Of a DNA stretch of 64,000 nt, positions 21,677 through 63,846 are shown one piece after another; the stretch's first letter is position 1, and each line of letters begins with the position of its first letter. Below the pieces are notes generated by a model that did no database searches, was not told the origin of the DNA, and worked only from the letters and a program-made list of their open reading frames with translations. The stretch is from an uncultured Planctomycetales bacterium (GTDB lineage: Bacteria; Omnitrophota; Gorgyraeia; Gygaellales; Profunditerraquicolaceae). The DNA lies in NCBI GenBank assembly GCA_964579435.1, contig CAZOGI010000010.1, positions 23,583 through 87,582 on the forward strand. Reading direction: 5' to 3'. The translations under genes were made by a program, and so were the position numbers.

Positions 21677-21680
21677 CCTT

Positions 21681-37456: not shown

Positions 37457-37475
37457 CGGGCCGTTTTGCGGCCGT

Positions 37476-37814
37476 TCATGTCTTCTGGCCCTCTGCCTCC
37501 AGCAGCACGAGTCTTTGGGTAAGCAGTTTGATCTTCTGTTCGAGACAGGAGATAGCGATCGAAAAATGGAGCAGCATCGCCGTGATGACGAAAAACGCTG
37601 CAAGAAAGAGCAGGGAGGGAGGGTAGTAGACGCCGACGAGCGCCGAGACCCGCTCCAGCAACGCGCGCCAAAGGCACAGGGAGAGGAGCATCCCGCAGCC
37701 CAGAAGCCACAGCAGGGCATACTTCTCCTTAAGACGCCCCGTGCGGATGCTGTAGAAGACAAAACCGACCAGCGCCAGGATCCCGCATACCGCAAACACT
37801 TGTATCCGGCTCAT
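37476..37814 (-). CDS. DUF2304-family small membrane protein
   Basis: 112 aa. LKEKYALLWLL...YYPPSLLFL core plus a C-terminal coiled-coil tail. Start overlaps the stop of the upstream GT2. Confidence 0.7.
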   Translation of the reverse strand: MSRIQVFAVCGILALVGFVFYSIRTGRLKEKYALLWLLGCGMLLSLCLWRALLERVSALVGVYYPPSLLFLAAFFVITAMLLHFSIAISCLEQKIKLLTQRLVLLEAEGQKT

Positions 37815-46093: not shown

Positions 46094-47084
46094 GAGCGCC
46101 ATGCCGGACATAGCCATCATCATTCCCGCCCGCAACTGCGCCGGCACCATACCGCTTGCGCTACAGGCGTGCCTCAAGCAGGATTACGCCGGCAGATACG
46201 AAATAATCGTCGTGGATGACGGCTCAACCGATGATACCGCAGCGGCCGTCAAAAATTTCCCCGTGCGTCTCATCGAACAAAAACACGCCGGCCCTGCCTG
46301 CGCGCGCAACCGGGGGACAAAAGCTTCAGAGGCGCAGCGCTACGCTTTCATCGATGCGGACTGCGTGCCGCCGTGCGATTGGCTGCGGCGCCTCAACGCT
46401 GCCTTCACGGCAACGGGGTACGCCTGCGCCTACGGCAGCTACACGATCCGCAACAAAAACTCCCTCCTGGCGGAAGGGATCTACCGGGAAATACTCCTGC
46501 GCCACAGCCGCCTCAAACAGGACTCTGCCGCACTCGGCTCCTACAACGCAATCTTCGACGCGACAGTCTTTCACGAATGCGGCGGCTTCGACGAATCATT
46601 CCGGGACGCAAGCGCCGAGGACACGGAGCTGGCGTACCGCCTTCGCCGCAACGGCAAACGCATACTTTTTCTGCCGGAGTGCACAGTGGCGCATCTTTTC
46701 CCCGAGCAGCTGGATTTCTATCTGGCTTCCCAATTCCGCCACGGTTTCTGGAGAGCGCGTCTCTACAGGCTGCATCCGGCAATGGCGGCAGGGGACGGAT
46801 ACACGCGGCTCAAGGACATCATCGAGACGCCCGCGGCGCTCCTGCTGAGCCTCTGCGCCGCGTTCTTTTTTCATCACGCCTGCCGCGTTGCCGCACTCCT
46901 GCTCTTTGCGGGACTGCTGCTTGCGCATGGCGCCTCCGCGGCGCAGCTCTCCCTGCAGGCGAAAAAGCCGGCGCTCCTCCTGTATGCCGGCGCGCTGCTC
47001 CTGCGCAGTTTTGCGCGGGCATACGGATTCTTTTTCGGGCTTCTGGCACTTCCCGGCAAAAACCGATGCGCTGCTCGATCGTAA
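46083..47084 (+). CDS. glycosyltransferase family 2 with C-terminal TM helices
   Basis: 333 aa; GTG 46083, or ATG 46101 as an alternative start. IAIIIPARNCAGTI...IIVVDDGSTDDT and FIDADC. Confidence 0.75.
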   Translation: MPDKSAMPDIAIIIPARNCAGTIPLALQACLKQDYAGRYEIIVVDDGSTDDTAAAVKNFPVRLIEQKHAGPACARNRGTKASEAQRYAFIDADCVPPCDWLRRLNAAFTATGYACAYGSYTIRNKNSLLAEGIYREILLRHSRLKQDSAALGSYNAIFDATVFHECGGFDESFRDASAEDTELAYRLRRNGKRILFLPECTVAHLFPEQLDFYLASQFRHGFWRARLYRLHPAMAAGDGYTRLKDIIETPAALLLSLCAAFFFHHACRVAALLLFAGLLLAHGASAAQLSLQAKKPALLLYAGALLLRSFARAYGFFFGLLALPGKNRCAARS

Positions 47085-47752
47085 TCCCCGCCCACAACGA
47101 AGAGGGCACGATCCGGACGCTCCTGGAAAGAACCCGGGAGTTTCTCGGCGGAACCGGGGAATGCGAGATCATTGTGGTCGATGACGGCTCAAGCGATAAA
47201 ACCGCAGAGCGGGTGCAGAAACTGGCGGCATCGATCCCGACGATACGGCTCCTGCGTCTTTCTCCCCGCAGAGGGCAGGGGATGGCGCTTGCCGCCGGGA
47301 TTGCTGCCGCACAGACCGGCATCATCGTCACGATGGATGCCGACCTGCAGAACGACCCGGCCGATATCCCGGCCCTGCTTGAGCGTCTCGAAAACGGCTT
47401 TGACGTTGTCTGCGGCTGGCGCAAAAACAGGAAAGACCCGTTCGTAAAACGAATAAAATCCCGGGTCGCCAACCTCTTGCAACGCCTTTTGCTCGGCGTT
47501 AAACTGCATGATATGAGCTGCACCCTGCGCGCCTACCGGCGGGAGGCGCTCGAAGGGATCGAATTCGGGCGGGGGTATGATTTTTCGCTCCTGCCGTACC
47601 TGATCGCGCGCCGCAAAGCCATGCGCATCTGCGAGGTCCCGGTCAGCCACGAGCGCCGGCACAGCGGCACCTCCAAATACGGGTTTTGGGGGACCTGCGC
47701 CGGGACATTCGTCAGTTTTGTGCGCTGCGTTGCAGCGCGACCGCATAAATGA
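47066..47752 (+). CDS. glycosyltransferase family 2, polyprenyl-phosphate glycosyltransferase (ArnC/GtrB/DPM1 type)
   Basis: Track ORF 46373 trimmed to ATG 47066. CSIVIPAHNEEGTI...IIVVDDGSSDKT...MDADLQNDP...CTLRAYRREAL. Confidence 0.85.
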   Translation: MRCSIVIPAHNEEGTIRTLLERTREFLGGTGECEIIVVDDGSSDKTAERVQKLAASIPTIRLLRLSPRRGQGMALAAGIAAAQTGIIVTMDADLQNDPADIPALLERLENGFDVVCGWRKNRKDPFVKRIKSRVANLLQRLLLGVKLHDMSCTLRAYRREALEGIEFGRGYDFSLLPYLIARRKAMRICEVPVSHERRHSGTSKYGFWGTCAGTFVSFVRCVAARPHK

Positions 47753-49910: not shown

Positions 49911-49938
49911 GTGACTCTTGAGAATAAAATAATATAAT
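49911..49938 (+). promoter_or_regulatory. candidate promoter GTGACT-16 nt-TATAAT, very short leader
   Basis: Sits in the AT-rich 245-nt intergenic region. -10 at 49933-49938, with ATG 49951 lying 12 nt downstream and no SD. Confidence 0.4.
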
Positions 49939-49950
49939 AATAGTTAAGCC

Positions 49951-52900
49951 ATGAAGAGCTTACCGACAAAGAAATTTTTCCGCACTTTTCTCATCCTGGG
50001 GATAACGACGCTCCTGTGCGCAACCCCGCATGCCCTTGCCGCAACCCGTTTCTATTTCGACGCCTCAACCGCAGCAGATGTCACTGCCTCCTATGACGCC
50101 GGCTGGGAATACCAATCCGAGGCAGGCCGCTACAAACTCAACAGGACCAAAGGCTCCTCCGCAATAACCATCGGCACCCAGATCGGCCCCTGGACCGCCG
50201 GCAGCGCCAACCAGGCCCTTGACCGCCAGTACATAAGCGATCCGATCGAAGCCCAGACCATAAGCGGCACGGTCAAAGGCCAGGTCATGTCGCGTGAATA
50301 CAACACCAGCGATAACGTGAACCGGATGTACATCACGGTCAAAGTCGTCTCCAACGACGGTTCCAGCGTGCGGGGGACACTCCTTGCCCTCAATACCTAT
50401 TACACGAATGCCGAACTGATCAGCAACGTAACCCACCGCAACGCCATCCTTGCCAATTCCGACACCGTCACCAACGTCACCGCGCAGCAGGGCGACCGCA
50501 TCCTCATCGAGATCGGCTTCGGCAGCTCGACAACCCAGACCACGCCCGAAGGCTCCTGCAAATGGGGGGAGAATGCATCCGACCTCCCGGAAAACGAAAC
50601 CCAAACAACCGACGGTGCGGGGTGGTTTGAGTTCTCCGCGGATATCACTTTCTATACTCCGCCCAAACCGCAATTCACCCAGAAAGCCTACCAGTGGGAG
50701 AATGACGATTCAACCTCAGGCGTCAACGCCAATTCACAGGCAGCCGAAGACAATACCGCCCTTACCGACGTGCGCATCGGACAGCGCCTCACCTGCAGGA
50801 TGCAGGTCGAGAACGACTCAACCGCCGCATCGAGCGACACCGTCTATCAGCTGCAGTGGGAGAACAACACCGATAACCCCGGGCGCTGGTTCCCGGTCGG
50901 CTACGGGACGCAGATCTCGTACGCAACCGGGCTCGCCGGCTTAAGCGGCGCCTCAACCGGCACCACCGCGCTCTGCGGAACCCCCACGTACACCATGGTC
51001 GCCGGCACCTGGCAGTCAGGGACGAGCCAGAACCCGCCCCACTCCATGGAGACGCAGCGAAGCGCGGAATTCTCTTTTGTCATCGACACCGCCAACGCAA
51101 AAGAAAATAAAGTCTATCGCCTGCGCCTCTTCGACAAAACAAACGCCCAGGCTTTCAATGCCTACACCGTCTATCCGCAGCTGACCACCGTCACCGCCGC
51201 CAACAACACCCTGCGCTACAGCAAAGAGCCACTCGATGCGGTGCAGAACACCTGGCGCATGGCCTCCTATCTGGACGAAACCGGCTATGACAACAGCGCC
51301 TCGGATAACTCGGTTTACGATTCGCTCCCCGCCCGGCGGCTTGCCCTTCGTGCGCAAGCCGACCTGACCTTTACCTCATTCGATGTTTCGCAATACCCGA
51401 CCTCGCAGATGGCCGTAGGCGTGGGAGACTTCAACAACGACGGCTACAACGACCTGCTCATGGGCGGCCAGCGCTACGCGACCTATGTCGGCCGGGCATA
51501 CCTTTATCTCGGCGGCAGCCCGATGGACAGCGTCTGTGACCTCACCATGCAGGCCGGTGCCCTCTACACCAATTCTTATTTCGGCTCCGCGGTCGCGGTC
51601 GGAGATATCAACAACGACAGTTTCGACGACGCCGTGGTCGGCAACTGGGGGTATTACCGTATGTACCTCTACTACGGCTCCACGACCATGAACAACGTCA
51701 TCGACATGACCTTTACCGGCGAAGCGACGAGCGACTACTACGGCTATTCGATCGGCATCAACGACGTCAACGGCGACAGCTTCAAGGATATCGTCACCAA
51801 CGCCCAGTGGTGGAATAACGGCCAGGGAAGACTCTACGTCTATTACGGCGGCACCACGATGAACAATGTTTGTGACCTGACGATAAACGGACAGGGAGGG
51901 GTGCACAACTATCCCGGGTTCGCCTGCGTCGTCGAAGACGTCAACAACGACAGTTTTGCCGACATACTCGTCAGCTCTCCCTACTACTACTATTCGGACA
52001 TGCGCGGCAGGGCATGGCTCTGGTACGGCGGAAACCCGATGGATGCCACCTGCGACAAGACCTTTACCGGAGAGACAACGGGCTCCTATTTCGGCGCTTC
52101 GGGATTATCGATCGGCGAAGTCAATAACGACGGCTTTAAGGACATCCTTATCGGAGCCTACGTCTACAGCTCCACGAAGGGCCGATCGTATCTTTTTTAT
52201 GGAGCGACCGGCACGAGCATGGATATAACCGCTGACAAAACCATCACCGGGAACGCGGGAGACTATCAGGGACAGGGAGAGCAGATCGTCGACGTCAATA
52301 ACGACGACTACGCTGACCTGGTCATCGGCGCCGATGCCTTCGGCAACAGCAGGGGAGTGGTCAAGATTTACTACGGCGGCGCCGACATGGACATCGTCGA
52401 AGACCTCAGCATCGCCACGGGCCAGACAGGCAACTATTTTTCCCAATCGGTCAATACGGGCGACCTGAACAACGACGGGGCCGCTGACCTGATCATCGGA
52501 GCCAACAGCTATCCGAGCCTCACCTACCAGGGCCGCGCCTGGGTTTATTACACCAAACCCCTCTTTGCCCCAACCCAGATCTTCGCCAAAAAGAACACCA
52601 ACAACACCGATTACATCGCCTTTGCCTGGAAAGGCAAAACCGACATGGCCGCAACTTCCGACAACATCATCGTCGAGGCTGCCCAGCAGACGGCGATGGA
52701 TGGCACTAACGACGAGACATTCACCGGAGAAGCGGGGAGCAATTTTTTCAGCAACTGTATCGCGCTTGCCGATTTCAACAACGACCATTACCAGGACCTG
52801 GTGCTGGGCGCCGACGGCTACAACAGCAACCAGGGCCGCGCCTATCTCTACTACGGCGGCACCGGCATAGTCGACACCGCCGCGGCACTTACGTTTAATT

Positions 52901-55900
52901 GTCCGGACACCGGCACCAATTATTTTGCGGGAGGCGGCTGGACCGTATCAACCGGGGACGTAAACGGGGACCTTTATGCCGACCTGCTCCTGGGGGCCGT
53001 CGGCTATAACACGAACATGGGCCGGGCTTTCCTGTACTTAAGCAAGCGCTTCGGCCTCATGGACGGCAGCCCTGACCTGACGCTCACCAGCCCGGCGACC
53101 GGCACAAACTCTTTCGGCAGGAACGCCGTCGGAGACGTCAACGGCGACGGTTTTGCCGATATGCTTATCGGTGCGCCCAGCTACGACACCAATAGGGGCC
53201 GGGTATACCTCTACTACGGCGCCTCAACTCCCGACGCCACTGCTGACCTGGTCCTCGCCGGCGAGACAACCGGAACCTATTTCGGCGACCGGATTGCGGT
53301 CAGTGACGTGAACGGCGATTATTTCTCGGACGTGCTGGTTATGGCTTATGCCTATGCCTCGACCCGCGGCAGGGCATACCTCTATTACGGCGGCACGACC
53401 ATGGATGCCACCTGTGACAAGACCTTTACCGGAGAAGCATCAAACACCAATTTCGGCCGCAGCGGCGGCATCGGCGATATCGATAACGACGGCTACGGCG
53501 ACGTCGTCATCGGGGCCAACCTGTACGCAACAAGCAGCGGCCGCGCCTATCTGTTCTGGGGCGCCACCAACATGGATGTCACCTGCGACAAAACCTTCAC
53601 CGGCGAAACAGCAAGCATACAGTTCGGCCAGGATGTCAGCATTTCCGACCTCAACGCCGACTCCTACGGGGATCTGGTCGTCACCGCCTACACCTGGAAC
53701 ACCAGCCAGGGCCGCGCCTATGTCTACAAAGGCGCCAGCCAGGCCTCCTTTGATACGACCTGTGACCTCACCTTAAGCGGCCTCACCACTACCGACAACT
53801 ACGGACGGGCCGCCCGCTCAGGCGATGTCAACAACGACGGATTCGCCGACCTGGTCGTCGGCGCCTACAATTACAACAGCGGACGCGGCCGGGCGTACCT
53901 CTATTACGGCGATACCGTCTCCTGGGTGACCCAGGCAACCGAAAGTTCCCTGGCAGCAGACACCCCCGGATGGATATACGCGTTCATCGATACCGACCCG
54001 AACCTCTATTACACGCCGGATAACTGGACGTATTGGCGGGTCTATCAGGCTCCGGGACAAGATACCAAAATTCTGGATATCGATTACGTGCAGTTCGACT
54101 TCCAGGCAACGGCGGTCAAGCTCATCTCTTTCTGGGCATTCGGCAAGGACGAAGAGGTCCAGGTCAGATGGGAAACCGCCTCTGAATCGCAGAACCTGGG
54201 CTTCAACCTCTACCGCTCGACATCCTCCGACGGAACTTACACCAAGATAAACGCAGGGATCATCTCCGGCCTCGGCAGCTCGCTGACCGGCAAAGAATAC
54301 TCCTTTACCGACGCCGATGTCTCAAACGGCCGCACCTACTACTACAAGCTGGAATCGATCGAGTTCACCGGCACCCGCGTCATGCACGGCCCCATCGAAG
54401 CGCATCCCGGGCTCGATGCCGACTCAGACGGCATGAGCGACGACTGGGAGGCGCATTACGGGCTCAACAGCGCTGACGCCTCGGACGCAGGGGCAGACCG
54501 CGACAGCGACGGACTGACGAATCTGCAGGAATACACCCTGGGCACCGACCCGACCCGCTCGGGCCAGGTAAGCGCAGGCGCAAGCGGCAGCGGCGGGCTC
54601 ACCGTCGTCTCCAGCGACTCAACCGGCATCACCCTGGAACTGCGCACCCCCGGGATCGAAAGCCGCACCGTCACCGTCAACAAACAAGCGTATCAATCCC
54701 TGAGCATCCCTGCCTATGCGCACGGCTATACGGCCATAAGCGCAAGCGCGCGCATGCCGGTCAAGCCGGTGATGCTTGCCCTGCCGCCCAATGCCGGCTG
54801 TTCCGTAGAAATCCTCAGCGAAGAGACGGAGATCTTCAGTAATTATACGGTAGAGCCGGTTACCACCTACACCCTGGAAGCGGATGCCAACGAAGAAGCG
54901 CTGCAATCGGGAGGCTTCGGCAAAACAGGACCGCTCGAGATAACGGTCGATCCGGCCGCGATCAACACCGTCTTCTATCAGCAGGACAGCAGCTATCCCG
55001 GGGAGCGCGCCGAGGTCGAATGGGTGGGAGATCTGCGCTCTCAGCGTATCGCCTGCCTGCGCCTGGCGCCGCTGCGCTTCAACCCGGCAAAGAAGGAGCT
55101 GACGATCTCCAAAGTCCTGCGCGTGCGGGTCACCTTTACCCAGGGAGGCGCTGCATCGGGAAACTGGCAGCTCTCCGAAACGGCCAAAAACGCGCGCATC
55201 AAGATCAAAACCGAAGGAGGCGGCATCCGCCGGCTTACCTGGACCGACCTGTATAACGCCGGCCTCACCGACGTGATCTGGTCCGACCCGCGACTCCTTT
55301 CCATGACCAACCTCGGCACGGAAATCGCTATCCGCGTCAAAGGCGAAGAGGACGGGATCTTCAATTTCGACGATTACGTGGAATTTTACGCCCGGGAAAT
55401 ACCGGCGCATTACGATGGATCGAGCCCCTACGCCGCGTATGCAAAATACTCTCCCCACAATGTTTACTTTTTGGGCTTTGGATCCTCCAACGGCAAACGC
55501 ATGGAGACGCGCGAAAGCAGCGCCAATGAAGGAAGCGTCTCGCCCGCGCGCTTCCGCCACACCGCCACCTTCGAGCAGAACGATTTTTACTGGAGCACCC
55601 GGGCGGGAGGGGAGCACGCAGACCGCTGGTTCTGGTCGCCTGCCCTCTGGGAAGACACGAGCCAGGAATACGCGCTGAACCTGCCCCATGTCGATGTCGA
55701 CAGCGCCGCCGAGACGGCAAGCGTCTCTTTGGTGTACTACCCGCTCCTGTACCTGCCGCAGCCCAGCGAAACCGCCAAAGCGACCGTCGCCCACGAAACA
55801 AGCGCAACCCTCAACGGCGTCTCCCTCGGCAGTGACACCTGGCAGGGCATGCAGGAACGCACCATCGAGGCGGAAATCGCACACGCCAGCCTTATTACCG

Positions 55901-57924
55901 GAAGCAACACCCTCAAGCTCGCGCACAAGAAAGTATCGCCTGCCGAGCACGACGCTCTTATCGCCAATTATTGCACGATCACCTACTGGCACACATTTGA
56001 GGCGGATTCGGACGCGCTCTCCTTCTCCTGCGCGAGCGAAACAGGGGACACCGCCGCATTCACGGTCACCGGCCTGACGACCCAGGAATGCTCTGCTTAC
56101 GATATTACCGATCCTGCCCAGCCGGTCGCCTTTTCCGGGCTCTCCGCGGTTTTCGACCCCGGAACCAACACCTACTGCGTTTCCTTCAAAGACGATATCC
56201 CGGCGGCGCAGGAGCGCCGTTATCTGGTGCTGGCCGACGCGCAAAAGACAGCCCCCGCGGCCCTTTCCTTCGTTGCCGCGCCGGCGCTTGACCTGAGCCT
56301 CGCCGGCAACCACGCCGATTACCTGATCATCACTCATTCCTCTTTTTCGGACGCCCTGGAGCCCCTCAAAAACCTGCACACCGCCCAGGCACTCGACGTG
56401 CAGATCATCGACATCGAAGATATCTATAACGCCTTCGCGTACGGGTTCCCGACGCCGCAGGCGGTCAAGGACTTCGTCAGCTACGCCTACGCGAACTGGA
56501 AAGGGCTCTGCCAAAAAACCTCGCCGCCCCGGGTCATGGCCCCGACGTACGTGCTCCTCGTCGGAGACGCCCACTACGATTACCGCGACAATCTCGGGAC
56601 CGGGCGCAGCATCTATGTGCCGACCTACCTCATTGCGGATCAACCCAATATCGGCGAGACCGCATCCGACAACTGGTTCGCCTGCATGGGGGGACAGGAG
56701 GATACCCTTGCGGATCTCTTTATCGGAAGGCTGCCGGTCAGGACAAACCAGGAGTGCCAGGCGGTAGTCTCCAAAACAATCGCCTACGCGGCACAGGAGG
56801 CCGGGGGAGCGTATACGCGGGCAACCTTCCTGGCCGATGTCGGCAGCGAATTCGAGCAGACCTGCGAGAGCCTCTCCGGCAAACTCTCCGCCGAAGTAAC
56901 CGGGCAAAAACTCTATTTGTCGGACTACCCCAGCGCCGCCTCGTTCGTCTCCGGACTCATCTCCTCCGTCAACAGCGGGACGCTCCTCTTGACCTATGTC
57001 GGCCACGCCGCAACCTATCTCTGGACCGCCGACGGCTCATTCGACACCGACTCCGTCGCCTCTCTGAACAACACCGCCGCCTTCCCGCTGGTCGTTTCCC
57101 TCGACTGCCTCGACGGCTACTTTATCAACCCCCAGGAACAGTACGAATCCCTCGCCGAGACCTTCCTGCGCAAATCCGGCTCCGGCGCCGTCGCCTGTTT
57201 CTCGCCCTCGGGCATGGGCATGCCGTCAAGCCATCTCATACTCGGCACCTATTTCTATAAAGCGCTCTTTGAGAGCGGCTCAACCCATCTGGGACAGGCG
57301 GCAACCGAAGCAAAACTCAATTATTTCGCCAGCACCGGCGCCGCCGGGCTGGACTTGGTGCATACCTATAACCTCTTGGGGGACCCGGCGCTCGCCCTGA
57401 AGATCCCGGCCGCTGCGTCCCAGACCGGCCAGACCGCCGTGACGACGACTGCCGCCGCGACAACTCAAACCGCAACAGAATCGGAATCCGCAACGACAAC
57501 GAGCGCGGAAACAGACGCCTTTACCTCGATCCTCGGCTCGGCGCTGGCCAACGTTGAAGAAGGCAAGAAATGGCGCGACGAAACCAAACAGGCCAAAGAC
57601 CCCCAGGACCCGGCAGAAACATCCGCGGAACCGCAGGGCGTCCTCGCGAAACTGCCGATCCCCAGGATCATCAAAGAGATCGTCAAGAAACAGAAGACGG
57701 CGCTGACGCAGCCAGCCGGCCAACCCGCGGCAACCGGTCTCACCCATGCGGATACCGCGCCGGAGGGAAGCGAATACGCTCAAGACGCAACAGTCCCGGA
57801 GCGTTCATCCGCCGTGCAGCAGAAATCCCCGCGCACGAATATCCTGCGCACCGTCATCGAAACAGTCTGGAAAGCTGTAGTCACCTTCTTCAAAAAACTC
57901 CTGGCCCTGATCCTGGGTAAATGA
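49951..57924 (+). CDS. giant secreted protein: 14 FG-GAP repeats (two predicted 7-bladed propellers) + TSP3-like acidic motif + peptidase C25 (gingipain-like) domain
   Basis: 2657 aa. Signal peptide ...LLCATPHALA. 14 D-x-N-x-D-x-x-x-D / GRAYLYYG units. DADSDGMSDDWE...DSDGLTNLQEYTLGTDP. C25-like ADYLIITH..., YVGHA (His codon 57004-57006), SLDCLDGYF (Cys codon 57106-57108). T/A/E-rich linker and a hydrophobic C-terminal tail. Confidence 0.9.
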   Translation: MKSLPTKKFFRTFLILGITTLLCATPHALAATRFYFDASTAADVTASYDAGWEYQSEAGRYKLNRTKGSSAITIGTQIGPWTAGSANQALDRQYISDPIEAQTISGTVKGQVMSREYNTSDNVNRMYITVKVVSNDGSSVRGTLLALNTYYTNAELISNVTHRNAILANSDTVTNVTAQQGDRILIEIGFGSSTTQTTPEGSCKWGENASDLPENETQTTDGAGWFEFSADITFYTPPKPQFTQKAYQWENDDSTSGVNANSQAAEDNTALTDVRIGQRLTCRMQVENDSTAASSDTVYQLQWENNTDNPGRWFPVGYGTQISYATGLAGLSGASTGTTALCGTPTYTMVAGTWQSGTSQNPPHSMETQRSAEFSFVIDTANAKENKVYRLRLFDKTNAQAFNAYTVYPQLTTVTAANNTLRYSKEPLDAVQNTWRMASYLDETGYDNSASDNSVYDSLPARRLALRAQADLTFTSFDVSQYPTSQMAVGVGDFNNDGYNDLLMGGQRYATYVGRAYLYLGGSPMDSVCDLTMQAGALYTNSYFGSAVAVGDINNDSFDDAVVGNWGYYRMYLYYGSTTMNNVIDMTFTGEATSDYYGYSIGINDVNGDSFKDIVTNAQWWNNGQGRLYVYYGGTTMNNVCDLTINGQGGVHNYPGFACVVEDVNNDSFADILVSSPYYYYSDMRGRAWLWYGGNPMDATCDKTFTGETTGSYFGASGLSIGEVNNDGFKDILIGAYVYSSTKGRSYLFYGATGTSMDITADKTITGNAGDYQGQGEQIVDVNNDDYADLVIGADAFGNSRGVVKIYYGGADMDIVEDLSIATGQTGNYFSQSVNTGDLNNDGAADLIIGANSYPSLTYQGRAWVYYTKPLFAPTQIFAKKNTNNTDYIAFAWKGKTDMAATSDNIIVEAAQQTAMDGTNDETFTGEAGSNFFSNCIALADFNNDHYQDLVLGADGYNSNQGRAYLYYGGTGIVDTAAALTFNCPDTGTNYFAGGGWTVSTGDVNGDLYADLLLGAVGYNTNMGRAFLYLSKRFGLMDGSPDLTLTSPATGTNSFGRNAVGDVNGDGFADMLIGAPSYDTNRGRVYLYYGASTPDATADLVLAGETTGTYFGDRIAVSDVNGDYFSDVLVMAYAYASTRGRAYLYYGGTTMDATCDKTFTGEASNTNFGRSGGIGDIDNDGYGDVVIGANLYATSSGRAYLFWGATNMDVTCDKTFTGETASIQFGQDVSISDLNADSYGDLVVTAYTWNTSQGRAYVYKGASQASFDTTCDLTLSGLTTTDNYGRAARSGDVNNDGFADLVVGAYNYNSGRGRAYLYYGDTVSWVTQATESSLAADTPGWIYAFIDTDPNLYYTPDNWTYWRVYQAPGQDTKILDIDYVQFDFQATAVKLISFWAFGKDEEVQVRWETASESQNLGFNLYRSTSSDGTYTKINAGIISGLGSSLTGKEYSFTDADVSNGRTYYYKLESIEFTGTRVMHGPIEAHPGLDADSDGMSDDWEAHYGLNSADASDAGADRDSDGLTNLQEYTLGTDPTRSGQVSAGASGSGGLTVVSSDSTGITLELRTPGIESRTVTVNKQAYQSLSIPAYAHGYTAISASARMPVKPVMLALPPNAGCSVEILSEETEIFSNYTVEPVTTYTLEADANEEALQSGGFGKTGPLEITVDPAAINTVFYQQDSSYPGERAEVEWVGDLRSQRIACLRLAPLRFNPAKKELTISKVLRVRVTFTQGGAASGNWQLSETAKNARIKIKTEGGGIRRLTWTDLYNAGLTDVIWSDPRLLSMTNLGTEIAIRVKGEEDGIFNFDDYVEFYAREIPAHYDGSSPYAAYAKYSPHNVYFLGFGSSNGKRMETRESSANEGSVSPARFRHTATFEQNDFYWSTRAGGEHADRWFWSPALWEDTSQEYALNLPHVDVDSAAETASVSLVYYPLLYLPQPSETAKATVAHETSATLNGVSLGSDTWQGMQERTIEAEIAHASLITGSNTLKLAHKKVSPAEHDALIANYCTITYWHTFEADSDALSFSCASETGDTAAFTVTGLTTQECSAYDITDPAQPVAFSGLSAVFDPGTNTYCVSFKDDIPAAQERRYLVLADAQKTAPAALSFVAAPALDLSLAGNHADYLIITHSSFSDALEPLKNLHTAQALDVQIIDIEDIYNAFAYGFPTPQAVKDFVSYAYANWKGLCQKTSPPRVMAPTYVLLVGDAHYDYRDNLGTGRSIYVPTYLIADQPNIGETASDNWFACMGGQEDTLADLFIGRLPVRTNQECQAVVSKTIAYAAQEAGGAYTRATFLADVGSEFEQTCESLSGKLSAEVTGQKLYLSDYPSAASFVSGLISSVNSGTLLLTYVGHAATYLWTADGSFDTDSVASLNNTAAFPLVVSLDCLDGYFINPQEQYESLAETFLRKSGSGAVACFSPSGMGMPSSHLILGTYFYKALFESGSTHLGQAATEAKLNYFASTGAAGLDLVHTYNLLGDPALALKIPAAASQTGQTAVTTTAAATTQTATESESATTTSAETDAFTSILGSALANVEEGKKWRDETKQAKDPQDPAETSAEPQGVLAKLPIPRIIKEIVKKQKTALTQPAGQPAATGLTHADTAPEGSEYAQDATVPERSSAVQQKSPRTNILRTVIETVWKAVVTFFKKLLALILGK

Positions 57925-58745
57925 CAACCCGTCTTTTTTGCATCGAAATAGCCGATTATCCCTTCGGCATAGAAGCGCCCGAACCCCTCTGGGGCGCATT
58001 TCAGGAAACCTATCTGCCGTTCCTGAGCGCCCGGGAGCCGCGCTACCGCATCCGCGCCGAGATCGACCCCACCGCGCAACCCGTTGACCTCTGGGAGGGG
58101 ATGACCCTGGATAAGACGACGCTCTCGATCAGCGATGACACCTCGAGTGCGCGTTTCGATTTCAAGACAAAAGAAGGGACGATCCGCCTGAACCCCGCCA
58201 GACTCCTGGTGCCGTTGGGCGCCTTCCTGCGCAATATCGTCACTGTGCTCTTGAGCCTCCAGGATGACGGCCTCCTGATGCATGCCTGCGGGGTCCTGTA
58301 CGAAGAGGAAGCATTCCTCTTCACCGGGCGTTCCGGCGCCGGAAAAACGACGGTATCGCGCGCGCTCGCCCATTTGCCGACGATCTCCGACGATCTTTTG
58401 CTGGTCAAGCCCACCCCCGGAGGATTCGGCGTCTGGCCGCACCCGCGCTGGGGAGACCGCCAGAGCGGATCATTCCAAAACCGGCCGCACCGGATCAGCA
58501 GTATTTACCTCTTGTGCCAGGATACCGGGGTTTTCGTGAAAAGGCTCGGCCCGGCCCGGGCCACCGCGCACCTCTTGACCGTTCCGCACGTCCCCGTCAA
58601 CCGCATCCCCGCCGCGCGCATCCTGGAAAGCACCCAACGCCTGGCGGAGACGGTCCCGGTGTACGAACTGCACTTCCGGCCCGACCCGTCGTTCTGGGAA
58701 AAGATACTGCAGGAGAGAGAAAGGATTGTCGCTGCATGGAAATGA
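57921..58745 (+). CDS. HPr kinase-related (HprK-like) P-loop kinase
   Basis: 274 aa. ATGA overlap with the giant gene stop. MHACGVLYEEEAFLFTGRSGAGKTTVSRAL...ISDD aligns with the HprK C-terminal catalytic core. Confidence 0.7.
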   Translation: MTTRLFCIEIADYPFGIEAPEPLWGAFQETYLPFLSAREPRYRIRAEIDPTAQPVDLWEGMTLDKTTLSISDDTSSARFDFKTKEGTIRLNPARLLVPLGAFLRNIVTVLLSLQDDGLLMHACGVLYEEEAFLFTGRSGAGKTTVSRALAHLPTISDDLLLVKPTPGGFGVWPHPRWGDRQSGSFQNRPHRISSIYLLCQDTGVFVKRLGPARATAHLLTVPHVPVNRIPAARILESTQRLAETVPVYELHFRPDPSFWEKILQERERIVAAWK

Positions 58746-59017
58746 AATCAGCAATCCCGTTCAAGAACGAGAAGACCGCTTCCCGCATCATCCAGGACCA
58801 GGCCGTGATCGTCATCCTGGAAAACCAGGAGACGGTGGTCCTCAACGAGAGCGCCTCGCGCATCTGGGAACTAAGCGACGGGAAACGCACGCTCGGGGAA
58901 ATCGCCCGCATACTGGAAGAGGAATTTTCGGTATCCGCGCAAACCGCCCTGCAGGACGCCGCCGCCTTCCTGGGCGAAGCGGAAGGCAAGGGGATCTTTT
59001 CACTCAACCGCCCATGA
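58742..59017 (+). CDS. PqqD-family protein (stand-alone RiPP recognition element-like)
   Basis: Track ORF 58514 trimmed to ATG 58742 (ATGA overlap); ATG 58736 is an alternative. VVLNESASRIWELSDGKRTLGEIARILEEEFSV...AAFLGEAEGKGIF. Confidence 0.75.
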   Translation: MKSAIPFKNEKTASRIIQDQAVIVILENQETVVLNESASRIWELSDGKRTLGEIARILEEEFSVSAQTALQDAAAFLGEAEGKGIFSLNRP

Positions 59018-60036
59018 CCCCGACCGGCTTCACCGATATCTTTGCGCACAGCATGCGGCAGAACCTCTGCCTGATCGCGCACCTGGAGCTCACCCACGCC
59101 TGCAACCTGCGCTGCCGGCACTGTTACTGCGTCCCCGACGCGGACCGGCCGGAGTGCTCGTTCGGGGAAATCCGCTCGGTCCTGCGGCAGCTCAAAGAAG
59201 CGGGAACGCTCTTTTTGTGCCTCAGCGGAGGCGAACTGCTCTGCAGAGCGGACATCTTCGAGATACTCTCCTGCGCGCGCGCCGAAGGGTTCGCCCTGCG
59301 CCTGATGACCAACGGCACGCTCATCGACGAAACGGCAGCCGCGCGCATCGCAGCCGCAGCCGCGGTTACGGTCGACATGAGCATCTACGCGGCAAATCCC
59401 CGGCTGCACGACGCGGTGACGGGAAAACCCGGATCGTTGCACCTGACCCTGCAGGCAGCAGCGCTCCTGAGGGAACGGGGGATACGCGTCGTGTTCAAGT
59501 TCATCGTCATGAAAGACACCGTCGGGGAATTCAAAAACATCCGCGCGCTCTGCCAAGAGAGAGGGATCGATTTCATCTACGACGTCTGCCTGGTCGAGCG
59601 CACCGACGGCGACGCCCGGCCGCTGCAGTACCGCCTGGACAAAGAAGGAATCAAATCGTTCCTGCGCCGGAACGCGCTGTCTCCCGCGGCATCGCCCGAC
59701 GGGTCGGTTTTGTGCACCGCCGGACTCAACAACATCTTCATCTCTCCGCAGCTGGACGTCTATCCCTGCATCGGCATCCGTGAAAAGATCGGCTCCCTGC
59801 GCCAAGGTTCCCTGAAGGACATCTGGGAATCCGCGCCGCTGCTGCGGAGGCTGCGCACCCTCACCGATGCCGAACTGAACGCCTGCTCTTCCTGCGCGAA
59901 GCGCGCCTACTGCTTCCGCTGCGCCGGCCTGGCGCTGGAAGCGTCAAACGACCTCTGCGCCCGCTCGCCGTTCGACTGCGAAGTTGCCCAGGCGCTCGCG
60001 GAAACCGCACAAAGAGAAAAGGAGACCGTCCTATGA
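59014..60036 (+). CDS. radical SAM enzyme with C-terminal SPASM domain (peptide-maturase type)
   Basis: Track ORF 58726 trimmed to ATG 59014 (ATGA overlap). LELTHACNLRCRHCY. C-terminal Cys array CTAG...YPC...CSSCAKRAYCFRCAG...C...C. Confidence 0.85.
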   Translation: MTPTGFTDIFAHSMRQNLCLIAHLELTHACNLRCRHCYCVPDADRPECSFGEIRSVLRQLKEAGTLFLCLSGGELLCRADIFEILSCARAEGFALRLMTNGTLIDETAAARIAAAAAVTVDMSIYAANPRLHDAVTGKPGSLHLTLQAAALLRERGIRVVFKFIVMKDTVGEFKNIRALCQERGIDFIYDVCLVERTDGDARPLQYRLDKEGIKSFLRRNALSPAASPDGSVLCTAGLNNIFISPQLDVYPCIGIREKIGSLRQGSLKDIWESAPLLRRLRTLTDAELNACSSCAKRAYCFRCAGLALEASNDLCARSPFDCEVAQALAETAQREKETVL

Positions 60037-60194
60037 ACAAGAAAAATCAACCCGCCGCGAAACGACCGTACACCAAACCCGCTATCGCCTTCAGCAAAAA
60101 GATCGAGATCATCTCCGCGGTATGCGATTCCGGCTTCGGCGGACTGAGCAACTGCCGCAAATCATCGACGCCCTGCCTGCGTTCCCGGGCCTAA
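60033..60194 (+). CDS. 53-aa candidate precursor peptide (not in the supplied ORF track)
   Basis: ATG 60033 overlaps the rSAM stop (ATGA), with GGAG 8 nt upstream. Translation: MNKKNQPAAKRPYTKPAIAFSKKIEIISAVCDSGFGGLSNCRKSSTPCLRSRA. GC3-rich codons. Three Cys and several Ser/Thr lie in the C-terminal 23 residues. Confidence 0.55.
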   Translation: MNKKNQPAAKRPYTKPAIAFSKKIEIISAVCDSGFGGLSNCRKSSTPCLRSRA

Positions 60195-60207
60195 GCTCAG
60201 GCGTACC

Positions 60208-61824
60208 GTGGACCGTTCAGACCCCGAGACCGTCTCGCTCTCGCTGGTACGCGACAGCCTCAATGTCCGCGGCGGGACGATCACCCTCACGATCGCCGGA
60301 TCCTGCATGTCGCCGCTGATCCGGGCAGGAGACCGCGTCACCATACGATCGGTTTCTTTCGCTGAACTCACTCCCGGCGACATAATCGCCTTCCAGGACC
60401 GCAACCTGCTCTACGCGCACCGCCTGACCGGCAAAGATCCCCGCACGCAGAATCTGCACACCCAGGCGGACCGGTCATGGCAGACGGACATCGCGTTCTC
60501 CTTTTCCCAGGTGTTGGGAAAAGTGACCGCCGTCTCGAAACAGGGCAGGACCCTGCATCTTGACCGCTTCCCCGGCCGGCAGATCAACCGTGCCTATGGC
60601 GCCTGCCGCCGCCTGCTTCAGGCGATCACGCTCCCCGCGCGAGCGGCGCATGAGGCCCTGCGCCGGAGGCAGGGGACAGAGGAGCGGCAAGCACTCTTTG
60701 CGGTTGTCTCTGTCGCCAGCCGCGGCTTTCTGGAGACCCCGTTCCCGCTGCCGGAGCGCATCGATGAGCCCCTCTTTGGGGAACAGGCGCGCGCCCAAAC
60801 ACTGGCACCCTGGTGCTTTTGCGTACTGCGCGATCGGCAGCGCGACCACGATGTTTTTTCTCCCACTCTGCGCGAAACGCTCAGGCTCGAATATTACGAA
60901 ACCTTTTCCCTGAATGCCCAATCCCTCCCCGGGACACAGGAACTCTTCGCTCACCTGCGCGCCCAGGAGATCGGATTCCTCGTCTTCAAAGGCCTGGTGC
61001 TGGCCCAGGGCGTCTATGCGGATATCGGAGCGCGCCGCCTGGGAGACACCGATATCCTCATCAGAAGGGAGGACCTCTCCCGTCTCGACCGGGTCCTGCG
61101 CGAGAGAGGCTTTCGTTGTCCGGTTCCCCTCACGGCAGTCCCGGAGGCGCCCAACGCGTACCGCAATGCGCTGCTGTATTTGCCTCCCGACGGATCCCTG
61201 CAGAGACCGCTGCATGTGTACTGGCACTGGGTCAATCTCGCCGCGTTTTCCCGGCGCCTCCCCGGGTCGATACGGATGGAACGGATCTGGCAGGACCGCA
61301 TCAAGGTCGACATCGCCGGCATCTGCCTGGAGACGTTCTCCTGGGAACATCACCTCATCTACCTGTCCATGCACGCGCTCGCCCATTCCTATTTCCCGCT
61401 CAGCACCCTTATCGACATCGCCGGGCTGCTGACGAAACGCCGAAAAGACCTCGAGTGGAACGGCATCCTCAAAGACGCCCAGACCTTCGGCCTGGAGCGG
61501 CCGCTCTTGCTTGCCCTCACCCTGGCCCGGGAGATCTGCTCCGCCCCGGTTCCCGCCGCGGCGTTAAGCCGGCTACGGCCAACCCGCCTGAGCTTATTCG
61601 AAAGACGCTTCATCGCAGACGCGCAGCGGTTACGGCTGAAAACGGGAAAAGAGTGGCTCCTTTACCTGGGCATGAACGACACGCCGCTTGAGCGCCTCGA
61701 TTTTATCCTCCGCGCGCTTTTTCCGCCCGCGCACCTTCTTGCCCTCATCCGCCAGCAGCCGCGCGCCGCCCTCGCCGCATCGTACGGGAAACGCCTGGTC
61801 GCGGCAATGCGCAGCGCCTCCTAA
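60208..61824 (+). CDS. fusion protein: S26B (SipW/Sec11)-like signal-peptidase domain + NTP_transf_5-type nucleotidyltransferase
   Basis: 538 aa with GTG start. N-terminal IAGSCMSPLIRAGDRV...GDIIAF...YAHRL...ADRSWQTD...LGKVTAV follows the ER-type SPase pattern. Central KGLVLAQGVYADIGARRLGDTDILIRREDL nucleotidyltransferase motif. Confidence 0.7.
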   Translation: MDRSDPETVSLSLVRDSLNVRGGTITLTIAGSCMSPLIRAGDRVTIRSVSFAELTPGDIIAFQDRNLLYAHRLTGKDPRTQNLHTQADRSWQTDIAFSFSQVLGKVTAVSKQGRTLHLDRFPGRQINRAYGACRRLLQAITLPARAAHEALRRRQGTEERQALFAVVSVASRGFLETPFPLPERIDEPLFGEQARAQTLAPWCFCVLRDRQRDHDVFSPTLRETLRLEYYETFSLNAQSLPGTQELFAHLRAQEIGFLVFKGLVLAQGVYADIGARRLGDTDILIRREDLSRLDRVLRERGFRCPVPLTAVPEAPNAYRNALLYLPPDGSLQRPLHVYWHWVNLAAFSRRLPGSIRMERIWQDRIKVDIAGICLETFSWEHHLIYLSMHALAHSYFPLSTLIDIAGLLTKRRKDLEWNGILKDAQTFGLERPLLLALTLAREICSAPVPAAALSRLRPTRLSLFERRFIADAQRLRLKTGKEWLLYLGMNDTPLERLDFILRALFPPAHLLALIRQQPRAALAASYGKRLVAAMRSAS

Positions 61825-61914: not shown

Positions 61915-63846
61915 ATGCCGCAATACGATTTCAACCTTCGCGATTATTTCCGGATCTTCCGCAAACGCAAGCTCGTCATCATCCTGACCTTTCTTCTGGT
62001 TTGTGCCGTCAGCTATGCCTTTCTTTCCACCCAGCCGACCGTCTATCAGGCCGATTGCACCGTCAAGATCGAAGAGCGCAAGACCATCGCCGGGCTCCTG
62101 ACCGAATGGATCATGTACAATCCGGGCGATGTCATGGAATCCCAGACCAAGATCATCCGGGGGTTCCCGATCATGCGCCAGGTCGCCCTGCGCCTGAAGC
62201 TCATCGACCAGAACAGCTCGGAGGATCAGATAAACGAAGCGGTGAACCGGCTCCAGGACCAGGTCGAGACCGAGCGTATCGAGTCGACCAACATGATCAA
62301 GATCAAGACCTCTTCCGCATCGCCCGACGAAGCGATGAACCTGGCCAATACCGTCGCCGAGGTCTATATAGAAGAGAACCTCACCGAAAAAGCCAAACAG
62401 GCACGCCACGTGCGCCAGTTCATCCAGGACCAGCTCTCGGGGCTTGACTCCCGACTCAAGGAATCAGAAGAGAAACTCAAGGAATTCGGGACCGGTACCG
62501 ACGTCAAATTTGCCGCGCCCATCGAACAGAAACTCATCGAGCTGGAATTCCAGCGCGCGGAACTCCTGCAGAAATACACCGAAAAACACCCTCTGGTCAT
62601 CCAGATCCGCGAACAGATCAAAGAGCTCCAGCAACGGGTCAGCGATTACAGCGGCCAGGAGCTGGAGTACGCGCGGCTGACCCGGGAGATCGATGTCAAT
62701 AAGAAGCTCTACGCCATACTCAAGGAAAAGCTCGAAGAGGCGCGCATAACCGAGGCACAGAAGGTCGGCGACATCTCGATCGTCAACCCGGCCTTTTTGC
62801 CGACGACGCCGCTTTCCGGGAACAAACAACTCAAATTTCTCATCGGCGCCTTCCTCGGGCTCCTGCTGGGACTGACCTTCGCCTTCGTGACCGAAACCCT
62901 GGACACCTCCATCGCCACGATCGAGGACGTCGAATCGGTGATCAAGCTGCCGGTCCTGGGGGTCGTGCCTTCCTTCGAATCCGCGGCCCAGGAAGACCGC
63001 AGCATGCTCGACGAAATAAAAGAGCTCTTCCGGGGGAAAAAACGCACGCCGAGCGAAGAAGCCGCGATCCGGCTCATCGCGCACTATAAGCCGCAGTCGC
63101 CGATAACCGAGGCCTACCGCAACATCCATACCAACCTGAAACTGGACCAGAGCAAGAAGACGATCCTCATCACCAGTTCCAACCCGCAGGAAGGCAAGAG
63201 CAGCGTCGTCTGCAACCTGGCCATCGTCATGTCGCAGCTGGGGCTTAAAACCCTGATCATCTCCTCAGACCTGCGCCGTCCCGTGCTCTCCAAAACCTTC
63301 GGGATCCCGCGCGAACCGGGGCTCAGCGAGCTTGCCATGGGTACGGCGACCCTGGACCAGGCCCTCTACAGCATCACCGACATCCTGCTGGGGACCCTCA
63401 AGATCGAAGACATCCAAAAGACCCGCGGCATCGACAATATCTGGATCATCCCCTCGGGGAGCATGGTCACCAACCCCGTGGAGATCATCGAATCCGCCAA
63501 GCTGCAGGAGATCGTCGAGGCCGCCAAGAAACGTTTCGATTTCATCATCTTCGATTCCCCGCCGGTCCTTCCCGTCACCGACGCCAGCCTCCTGGCGCCG
63601 AAAATGGATTGCGTCATCATCGTCTACGAGATCGGCCGCACCAGCCGTGAAGCGCTCCTGCGCACCAAGATCCAGCTGGAAACCGTCGGCGCGCGTATAA
63701 CCGGGATCGTGCTCAACCATACCAAGCCCCAGACCGAAGCCCTGGCGACCTATCCCTACAATTACCGGTACAAATACCGCTACTATGACGAAGAGCACCA
63801 GAAGAAGCAGGGAGGGTTTTTCAAAAAGGCGCGCAAGAGAAGCTAA
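61915..63846 (+). CDS. polysaccharide co-polymerase (Wzz domain) fused to BY-kinase tyrosine autokinase
   Basis: 643 aa. N-terminal TM + coiled-coil Wzz region. Walker A SSNPQEGKSS, A-prime ISSDLRRP, Walker B IIFDSPPV. C-terminal Tyr cluster YPYNYRYKYRYYDEE. Confidence 0.9.
   Translation: MPQYDFNLRDYFRIFRKRKLVIILTFLLVCAVSYAFLSTQPTVYQADCTVKIEERKTIAGLLTEWIMYNPGDVMESQTKIIRGFPIMRQVALRLKLIDQNSSEDQINEAVNRLQDQVETERIESTNMIKIKTSSASPDEAMNLANTVAEVYIEENLTEKAKQARHVRQFIQDQLSGLDSRLKESEEKLKEFGTGTDVKFAAPIEQKLIELEFQRAELLQKYTEKHPLVIQIREQIKELQQRVSDYSGQELEYARLTREIDVNKKLYAILKEKLEEARITEAQKVGDISIVNPAFLPTTPLSGNKQLKFLIGAFLGLLLGLTFAFVTETLDTSIATIEDVESVIKLPVLGVVPSFESAAQEDRSMLDEIKELFRGKKRTPSEEAAIRLIAHYKPQSPITEAYRNIHTNLKLDQSKKTILITSSNPQEGKSSVVCNLAIVMSQLGLKTLIISSDLRRPVLSKTFGIPREPGLSELAMGTATLDQALYSITDILLGTLKIEDIQKTRGIDNIWIIPSGSMVTNPVEIIESAKLQEIVEAAKKRFDFIIFDSPPVLPVTDASLLAPKMDCVIIVYEIGRTSREALLRTKIQLETVGARITGIVLNHTKPQTEALATYPYNYRYKYRYYDEEHQKKQGGFFKKARKRS

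Follow-up and report, generated by a model that had tools for sequence, protein, structure and literature searches.

The stretch of DNA analysed here (64,000 nucleotides, hereafter the window) comes from an uncultured Planctomycetales bacterium (contig CAZOGI010000010.1 of assembly GCA_964579435.1, positions 23,583 to 87,582). A reading of the sequence alone, without database searches, had described five consecutive plus-strand genes directly behind a giant FG-GAP/C25 gene and had likened them to a cassette for making a modified peptide. This layout was confirmed in the open reading frames (ORFs) and in the raw sequence. The giant gene g0 (49951–57924, 2,657 aa) was followed on the same strand by g1 (57921–58745, 274 aa), a P-loop protein assigned by fold and motifs to the phosphoenolpyruvate carboxykinase (PEPCK)/HprK-P fold and, by homology, to the ScmC family; g2 (58742–59017, 91 aa), a stand-alone PqqD-family protein and presumed recognition element (RRE) for a peptide made on the ribosome and modified after translation (RiPP); g3 (59014–60036, 340 aa), a radical SAM (rSAM)/SPASM enzyme; g4 (60033–60194, 53 aa), a putative precursor peptide; and g5 (60208–61824, 538 aa, GTG start), a fusion of a peptidase-like and an NTP_transf_5 domain. 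The stop codon of g0 overlapped the start of g1, and ATGA start/stop overlaps were found in the raw sequence at g0/g1, g1/g2, g2/g3 and g3/g4, as had been claimed. We consider it probable that this operon tail (g0–g5) encodes a RiPP-type maturation pathway for a small three-Cys peptide, tied to the cell surface.

The candidate precursor g4 had the sequence MNKKNQPAAKRPYTKPAIAFSKKIEIISAVCDSGFGGLSNCRKSSTPCLRSRA, with a basic N-terminus, a leader motif KRPYTKPAI and a 24-residue core containing three conserved Cys; from the alignment we infer a leader/core junction around ISA↓VC. Neither Pfam nor NCBIfam had a family that matched the peptide. Among 5.8 billion proteins searched by profile, its family amounted to only 14 sequence clusters, including the window's own peptide, with the consensus KKPYxKPAVIFSKKIEVISAVCxSARGGxxGCxKxxPCxRLL(S/T) and a leader of the form (K/R)(K/R)PYxKPx(I/V)xFxKKIE. 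Residues Y13, P16, F20, K22, I24, E25, C31 and C48 were invariant in the alignment and V30, C41 and K43 nearly so, the third conserved Cys (Cys41) being lost from its position in one family member. The core was rich in Arg and Lys.

Relative loci, all of them metagenomic, were fetched (L001–L015), and every related locus had an ORF of 48–63 aa immediately behind the rSAM gene. Across eight loci the differences in g4 at codon positions 1, 2 and 3 numbered 156, 104 and 354, respectively, and pN/pS (nonsynonymous relative to synonymous differences) was mostly 0.1–0.45, with synonymous sites near saturation. A GGAG Shine-Dalgarno sequence lay 6–10 nt 5′ of the peptide ORF in 8/8 loci; in the window it was AAGGAG (60019–60024, plus strand), 8 nt 5′ of the g4 ATG and within the 3′ end of g3. 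When all the fetched DNA was scanned for the motif, each cassette yielded a single peptide of this kind and the 64-kb window contained none besides g4, and the peptide family was found only beside this cassette wherever the flanking sequence sufficed. Scanning metagenomes with the peptide added one short contig. The conserved sequence and position, the third-position bias, the low pN/pS and the ubiquitous Shine-Dalgarno sequence indicate that g4 is a real gene under purifying selection; the sequence-only reading had named this 53-aa Cys-containing ORF as a candidate precursor.

Counted from the Tyr of YxxP, the first Cys came exactly 18 residues later in 16/16 family peptides and also in the distant loci L009 and L013 (first peptide, L013a); the spacing was 19 in the second peptide of the latter (L013b) and 21 in L014. 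Such a constant spacing looks like a molecular-ruler constraint. All g4 family members kept a YxxPxL-like register (Y13-x-x-P16-x-I18), and the leader motif PYxKPx(I/V) recurred even in distant cassettes, whose small ORFs all shared Y-x-(K/A/S)-P-x-(I/V). Peptides from rSAM-containing loci carried at least two Cys in 20/20 cases, and those from the two rSAM-free loci (L007 and L015) were Cys-free, two being the whole number of rSAM-free loci in this comparison. Because of the 18-residue ruler, the intact SPASM Cys of g3 and this co-variation of Cys with the presence of an rSAM gene, RRE-anchored rSAM chemistry on Cys is indicated, a thioether being the most likely type of cross-link. Nine of the 16 family peptides ended in Ser or Thr, as did those of L009, L013b and L014.

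g2 had been described as a PqqD-family protein of roughly 92 aa; the family assignment held (Pfam PqqD, 58.8 bits; cutoff 23.4), and the length was corrected to 91 aa. Cutoffs here and below are Pfam gathering or NCBIfam equivalog thresholds, the latter given in brackets after the score. All NCBIfam matches of g2 were below cutoff, namely PQQ_PqqD 43.9 (46), GeoRSP 26.6 (100), lasso_PqqD_Bac 21.5 (80) and ScmD 17.6 (100), and no match to the PqqD model of the HPr-rel-A system was obtained at E ≤ 0.01.

The claim that g3 is an rSAM/SPASM enzyme was borne out, both Pfam domains exceeding their cutoffs (Radical_SAM 74.5 bits, SPASM 35 bits). The sequence CNLRCRHC and a GGE motif were present in g3, its SPASM domain was complete, and the protein had no N-terminal RRE of its own. 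Within its family C30, C34, C37, G72-G73-E74, C234, C252, C291 and C294 were invariant and C300 and C303 nearly invariant, so that the rSAM (CX3CX2C) and SPASM Cys sets were intact throughout. The family was small, with 41 matches at E < 1e-20; leaving aside the window's own sequence, nine of these were at least 44% identical. The best NCBIfam matches reached 94–120 bits against cutoffs of 265–625, including MftC 108.9 (265), ScmE 100.5 (400), StsB 96 (625), GeoRSP rSAM 94.1 (400) and PqqE 93.5 (381); lower scores were obtained for ScmF 74.2 (400) and AlbA 62 (850). An anaerobic sulfatase maturase or another rSAM of known substrate was rejected, no equivalog cutoff being approached; a confident score of that kind had been named beforehand as an outcome that would tell against the sequence-only reading. 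The solved structures nearest by sequence were PqqE (the closest), SkfB and the chains 5v1q and 5wgg.

The likening of g1 to an HPr kinase held for fold and motifs and failed for the profile. Its Walker A motif was GRSGAGKTT and its acidic metal-site motif ISDD, and no match to Pfam Hpr_kinase_C (PF07475) was obtained at E ≤ 0.01. NCBIfam matches were confined to the P-loop region and all below cutoff: ScmC 23.8 (125), HprK_rel_B 18.7 (200) and HprK_rel_A 15.8 (200). A profile search of the PDB with g1 returned only P-loops and weak PEPCK matches, and a fold search was needed for placement. An AlphaFold (AF2) model, built from a 51-sequence alignment with a pLDDT of 89.7, was compared by Foldseek and matched ATP-dependent PEPCK (E 3e-9) and the HprK/P structures 1knx, 1ko7, 3tqf and 1kkl (E 1e-5 to 5e-4). 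Weak matches to PEPCK_ATP were present in 25/51 family members and to Hpr_kinase_C in 7/51. By this model g1 is predicted to be a P-loop protein with a PEPCK/HprK-type fold, resembling HPr kinase at the level of fold and motif only.

Because P0048, a protein 90% identical to g1 and equally long, and all the cassette orthologs (L001, L002, L004, L005, L011 and L012) carry the precomputed Pfam ScmC assignment (PF27840), g1 appears to belong, by this indirect route, to the broad ScmC family. At E ≤ 1e-3 the wider family of ScmC-like kinases numbered 60,675 cluster representatives, and at the stricter E ≤ 1e-30 it still numbered 7,518; most were 260–310 aa long. Sampled members matched ScmC, HprK_rel_B and HprK_rel_A weakly, the HprK_rel models in 22–29 of 35. 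A genome scan with the ScmC alignment was saturated by the generic P-loop pattern and gave three loci only. A lone ScmC-like gene beside dprA (L008) was uninformative.

The domain fusion proposed for g5 was well supported in its C-terminal part, some 70% of the protein. The NTP_transf_5 domain (PF14907; 60769–61536, plus strand), of nucleotidyltransferase fold and with a GDTD motif, scored 138.1 bits (gathering 31.2) over aa 188–443, covering profile positions 6–247 of 249. The N-terminal domain (60208–60660, plus strand), archaeal/ER-type signal-peptidase-like (SipW-like, S26B/S24) and the presumed leader peptidase, was sub-threshold by itself (Peptidase_S24 16 bits; TIGR02228 26.6 against 51.85) and drew its support from homologs, which scored 41–58 bits on TIGR02228 (3/7 above cutoff) and gave weaker SipW matches. 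Their alignment followed the pattern S-M…H-R…(S/G)D…D of SipW-type signal peptidases I, with His71 and Asp88 invariant and His71-Arg72 conserved. SipW also serves biofilm-matrix proteins. On inspection no N-terminal membrane anchor was visible in the g5 domain, which therefore looks like a soluble peptidase; this, its place in a peptide-maturation cassette, its fusion partners (NTP_transf_5 here, ScmC in P0241) and the Cys at the nucleophile position of the window copy set it apart from the SipW type.

The fusion of peptidase and NTP_transf_5 occurred in the window only, the two being separate genes in most relatives: NTP_transf_5 in L001 (where it was displaced downstream), L002, L004, L011 and L012, and the S24-type peptidase in L001, L002, L005 and L011. 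In L002 (11296–12850) and L011 (5225–6108) the separate genes overlapped by 7–8 nt, so that a 1-nt insertion or deletion, real or artefactual, could have made the window fusion. In L005 (11720–14266) NTP_transf_5 was instead fused to an ABC_membrane and ABC_tran exporter (848 aa), a domain arrangement that appears to link the nucleotidyltransferase step to export. Two further fusions involved the ScmC-like kinase, which was joined to Peptidase_S24 in P0241 (420 aa) and to a SAM methyltransferase in P0217 (652 aa). The fusions of S24, NTP_transf_5, ScmC and exporter domains with one another argue that these parts belong to one pathway.

The order ScmC, PqqD, rSAM/SPASM, peptide was identical in the window and in six relatives (L001, L002, L004, L005, L011 and L012; with the window, type I), and in all six NTP_transf_5 followed the cassette. 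Conservation of the small ORF behind the rSAM gene and of the gene order had been set beforehand as a test of the sequence-only reading, and both were found in these relatives, although their rSAMs were only 36–49% identical. L002 (8237–17133) differed in having no C25 giant and in carrying a 23S_rRNA_IVP-family gene inserted between ScmC and PqqD; aryl-polyene-like ketosynthase, acyl carrier protein and dehydratase genes followed its cassette. A second rSAM/SPASM gene was seen in L001 (20086–21053), behind the Wzy and flippase genes of the same extracellular polysaccharide (EPS) locus; it shared only about 25% identity with g3 across 114 aa.

Two loci, L007 (9821–18958, Anaerolineales metagenome-assembled genome (MAG), JBGSTO010000462.1) and L015 (50–8688), represented a second cassette type (type II), ordered ScmC, small ORF, C25, S24, PqqD, C25, with neither rSAM nor NTP_transf_5. 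Their Cys-free peptides read RKPYxKPxI…DLExRAGSPL…DPFNL. Because type II loci keep C25, kinase, PqqD, S24 and peptide without an rSAM, comparison of the loci shows these five as the probable deeper core of the system. More distant variants were also detected. In L013 (1–11600) ScmC-PqqD sets stood three in tandem, and two of these also included rSAM/SPASM and S24; the locus further had small Cys-rich ORFs whose leaders contained YxxP, a DsbA and VKOR pair and an ABC exporter, and looks like a multi-precursor relative. L014 contained FG-GAP proteins, a 61-aa ORF, PqqD, rSAM and ScmC, and L009 (Thermoanaerobaculia MAG) contained ScmC, PqqD, rSAM and a convergent two-Cys ORF.

The giant protein g0 contained FG-GAP repeats (261 bits, at least 10 repeats), a Propeptide_C25 domain (aa 1551–1732, 63.6 bits) and a Peptidase_C25 domain (aa 2124–2483, 262.2 bits) in Pfam. 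It began with a signal-peptide-like segment and was predicted to be secreted. Gingipain-type His (VGH, ~aa 2352) and Cys (SLDC, aa 2386) motifs were present, assigned by motif resemblance and not by structural alignment. Homologous C25 giants lay directly upstream of the cassette in L001, L004, L005, L011 and L012, where stop and start codons often overlapped; counting the window, this held for 6/7 type I loci, L002 being the exception, and in L007 and L015 C25 genes lay inside the cassette. The giant C25 protein is thus a conserved, translationally coupled partner of the cassette, kept even in the rSAM-free variants.

The best plus-strand sigma-70-like promoter match (49911–49938; 10/12, by consensus only) adjoined the 5′ side of g0, and a consensus scan of the window gave no comparable match from there to the end of g5. 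As the best such match precedes g0 and none lies within the cassette, there is weak evidence that g0–g5 may form one transcription unit. Intrinsic terminators were no commoner than in shuffled sequence (23 vs 17 ± 5) and were uninformative on the ends of the operon.

Downstream of g5 lay g6 (61915–63846, plus strand), matching profiles of Wzz/GNVR and tyrosine-autokinase (Wzc/EpsG-type) polysaccharide co-polymerases. Homologs of g6 occurred downstream of the cassette in L001, L004 and L005, and Wzc and Poly_export genes recurred as cassette neighbours. The envelope-glycan setting recognised earlier was evident over the whole window, which formed one large glycan locus with sugar-nucleotide enzymes, many glycosyltransferases, Wzy_C, PMT_2 and three B12-binding rSAMs. 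The latter were consecutive genes 5′ of g0 (ORFs 41869–43308, 42774–44705 and 44123–46093), and after them came genes for two GT2 glycosyltransferases and for a TPR protein (region 41869–47752). On the minus strand of the same locus were a 744-aa protein with a spermine/spermidine-synthase domain (32483–34717) and two very large TPR proteins (34685–40769), one with a PMT_2 domain.

A pathway can be proposed from these parts. In lasso precursors the YxxPxL leader is the part bound by PqqD-type RREs, and by analogy g2 would bind the g4 leader and present the peptide to g3, which most probably would cross-link Cys residues, as in the thioethers of sacti- and ranthipeptides, at a fixed distance from the leader. 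In lasso clusters the HPr-kinase homolog PsmK (pseudomycoidin) phosphorylates the C-terminal Ser of the precursor through a DD metal site, and the phosphate then receives one or two hexoses from PsmN, an "uncharacterized NTP transferase"; in some cases such an N-type gene forms a fusion with the leader protease. On the model of PsmK, g1 may phosphorylate a Ser/Thr hydroxyl of the peptide, and on that of PsmN the NTP_transf_5 domain of g5 may then elaborate the phosphate with a sugar or nucleotide. The peptidase domain of g5 would cut the leader at a small-residue site before the first Cys, …(V/I)-(I/L)-(S/A)-(A/T)↓V-C… (…IS-A↓V-C… in the window). The product may act with the secreted FG-GAP/C25 giant and the Wzc-type export machinery, in envelope or matrix biology and not as a typical hypervariable antibiotic. 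Because the coupling to C25/FG-GAP and Wzc/Wza genes is conserved, and the whole peptide core with it, the comparison of loci suggests a conserved surface or matrix role.

Several points weigh against this maturation pathway. Every proposed step is putative, being drawn from family, fold, fusion and neighbourhood. g1 fell below every curated kinase-family cutoff, and an ATP-dependent activity other than peptide phosphorylation is possible. The window peptide ends in Ala (…RSRA), which makes its phosphorylation site uncertain, and NTP_transf_5 (PF14907) is likened to PsmN by description. At the nucleophile position of the g5 peptidase domain stood Cys33 (TGC, 60304–60306, in GSCMSP), where the other 7/8 sequences had Ser; with this residue the domain could be a variant working through Cys-His-Asp or could have lost its activity, or the codon could be a mistake of the assembly. 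Both the Cys codon and the gene fusion come from a single assembly. L004 and L012 had no S24 gene at all, so the leader-peptidase assignment is not universal. Family profile scans detected no ABC exporter within the 64-kb window. Finally, conservation of the full peptide, core included, is atypical for antimicrobial RiPPs and closer to that of cofactor or structural precursors.

Of the competing explanations the one that survives best, itself rather unlikely, is that the cassette is an accessory to the C25 giant and the modified peptide a dedicated substrate, ligand or inhibitor of C25, not a free natural product. The C25 domain might, for example, cleave a peptide tag or transpeptidate it onto a glycan or surface protein; transpeptidation is performed by clan-CD relatives (PorU, GPI transamidase and legumain-type ligases). 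The translational coupling of g0 and g1, the intact catalytic His and Cys motifs of g0, the giant upstream in nearly all type I loci, the pair of C25 genes inside each type II locus, the conserved, Arg/Lys-rich peptide core and the conserved Wzc and Poly_export neighbours would all fit. However, L002 has the full cassette without a nearby C25 giant, the distant L013 and L014 lack C25, and the supposed interaction of C25 with the peptide is conjectural; this reading would in any case be compatible with the RiPP maturation steps and not exclude them.

We regard as improbable that g4 gives rise to a small redox cofactor or other intracellular metabolite, as happens in the pyrroloquinoline quinone (PQQ; PqqA/D/E) and mycofactocin (MftA/B/C) pathways, with most of the peptide discarded after rSAM chemistry. 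A stand-alone PqqD beside an RRE-less rSAM/SPASM enzyme is indeed the PQQ/mycofactocin layout, g2 came near the PQQ_PqqD cutoff, the precursor is conserved over its full length, and MftC, PqqE, AhbD and NirJ were among the best g3 matches, PqqE also being the closest solved structure by sequence. Yet the equivalog scores of g3 fell far short (MftC 109 vs 265, PqqE 93.5 vs 381), and g4 lacked both the Glu/Tyr signature of PqqA and the Val-Tyr with which MftA ends; what it conserves is three Cys. With the PqqE, MftC and PqqD cutoffs all missed and these signatures absent, membership of the PQQ or mycofactocin systems was rejected. Scans of the window revealed no cofactor-dependent dehydrogenases nearby, the neighbours being surface and EPS genes, and exporter fusions or neighbours occurred in L005, L013 and L001.

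That the cassette simply represents a catalogued system (SynChlorMet, HPr-rel-A, GeoRSP or a tailored lasso cluster) is very improbable. g1 had ScmC as its best NCBIfam match, followed by HprK_rel_B and HprK_rel_A, and its homologs carry PF27840; g2 matched the GeoRSP, lasso and ScmD PqqD models, g3 matched ScmE, ScmF and GeoRSP, and the leader is lasso-like. All the curated cutoffs were nevertheless missed widely, there is one rSAM and not two, and neither a lasso cyclase nor a B2 protease is encoded in the window. Among named systems, the SynChlorMet cassette and the lasso clusters tailored by K and N enzymes come closest.

The SynChlorMet cassette (TIGR04248–04251), for which we know of no product, likewise brings together a P-loop protein of the ScmC type, a small member of the PqqD family and rSAM/SPASM maturases. 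It has two rSAMs (ScmE and ScmF) where the window has one, and the window adds a signal-peptidase-like protease, NTP_transf_5, a three-Cys precursor family, the C25/FG-GAP giant and EPS export genes. Assignment to SynChlorMet was rejected, the ScmC, ScmD, ScmE and ScmF cutoffs each being missed 4- to 6-fold. The likeness to the HPr-rel-A system (TIGR04352 HprK_rel_A and TIGR04355 HprK_rel_B) drawn in the sequence-only reading needs amending, since the nearest named kinase family is ScmC (SynChlorMet, PF27840) and the cutoffs of both failed. HPr-rel-A shares a kinase-fold protein and a PqqD with the window, and also includes a nucleotidyltransferase; the window differs in having one kinase gene and, in addition, an rSAM and a precursor. 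This system was rejected on the g1 scores (15.8 and 18.7 bits vs 200), and GeoRSP on those of g2 (26.6 vs 100) and g3 (94.1 vs 400).

The paeninodin (PadeK) and pseudomycoidin (PsmK/PsmN) lasso clusters resemble the cassette in their kinase fold with P-loop and DD motif and in their NTP transferase, and apparently also in their PqqD-type RRE and YxxPx(L/I) leader. The fusion of an NTP transferase to a leader protease in some of them recalls g5, and the Ser or Thr that ends many g4 family peptides is the target position of PsmK and PadeK. They differ in that the cyclase and the B2 transglutaminase-type protease are replaced here by an rSAM/SPASM enzyme and an S26B-like peptidase, in the missing Hpr_kinase_C match of g1, in the low score of g2 on the lasso PqqD model (21.5 vs 80) and in the terminal Ala of the window peptide. 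A lasso cluster was rejected, family profile scans having found neither cyclase nor B2 protease anywhere in the 64-kb window; the sequence-only reading had noted that none was adjacent. The window's only Asn synthase, a glutamine-dependent one (GATase_6/7 and Asn_synthase, 688 aa), was located within the glycan locus at 21519–23585; its GATase domain and its distance of 36 kb from the cassette speak against its being a lasso cyclase, and it is not counted as one.

With sacti- and ranthipeptide systems (subtilosin, SKF and SCIFF) the cassette shares an rSAM with full SPASM domain, presumed RRE-dependent recognition and a short multi-Cys precursor beside the maturase, and the SkfB and AlbA models were among the g3 matches. 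Here, in contrast, the RRE is a separate protein and not built into the N-terminus of the maturase, every family cutoff was missed, and the kinase, NTP-transferase and signal-peptidase-like genes have no place in the sacti- and ranthipeptide clusters. The features of rSAM/SPASM RiPP loci were nonetheless present, namely CX3CX2C and SPASM Cys, an adjacent Cys-containing precursor in all type I loci and a discrete PqqD.

The idea that the 53-aa ORF arose by chance, the enzymes acting instead on the giant protein or on glycan, has only its lack of a known family to recommend it and is effectively refuted by the constancy of its sequence, length and place across every related locus, the third-position excess (354 vs 156 and 104), the pN/pS values and the Shine-Dalgarno sequence in 8/8 loci.

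A literature search found no paper describing this gene combination, in agreement with the earlier statement that no product of it has been characterised. In the papers found, PqqD was never combined with C25 or gingipain, and ScmC or HprK were never mentioned together with RiPP or radical SAM; PF14907/NTP_transf_5 appeared in an unrelated context only, and the RRE-Finder literature made no mention of kinase, NTP-transferase or S24. The search found no literature on SynChlorMet and no experimental study of the ScmC-like kinase family.

On the reading preferred here, the cassette is probably an RRE-dependent rSAM RiPP cluster, and either a distinctive chemistry or the C25/EPS link could define a new class. 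If so, the pathway would have a verified precursor family and an enzyme set (stand-alone RRE, rSAM/SPASM, ScmC-type kinase, NTP_transf_5 and soluble signal-peptidase-like leader protease) that is not known to occur together in any characterised cluster. It would provide the first functional handle on the ScmC-like kinase family, with its ~7,500 representatives at E ≤ 1e-30, and would extend the "K/N" phospho-glycosylation chemistry of lasso peptides to a non-lasso scaffold. The entire cassette is smaller than 4 kb, a size that suits heterologous expression.

A more ambitious and doubtful proposal is that of a new RiPP class, in which a thioether-bridged, phosphorylated, sugar- or nucleotide-decorated peptide of ~24 residues would be handed to a secreted clan-CD (C25) enzyme and to Wzc/Wza machinery. 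Were it true, the peptide might be, for example, a covalent peptide-glycan linker, a primer or a matrix component, and RiPP machinery would have been recruited for envelope building. In either case the coupling to C25/FG-GAP and EPS genes suggests that a modified peptide may take part in matrix or envelope biology, an unusual link.

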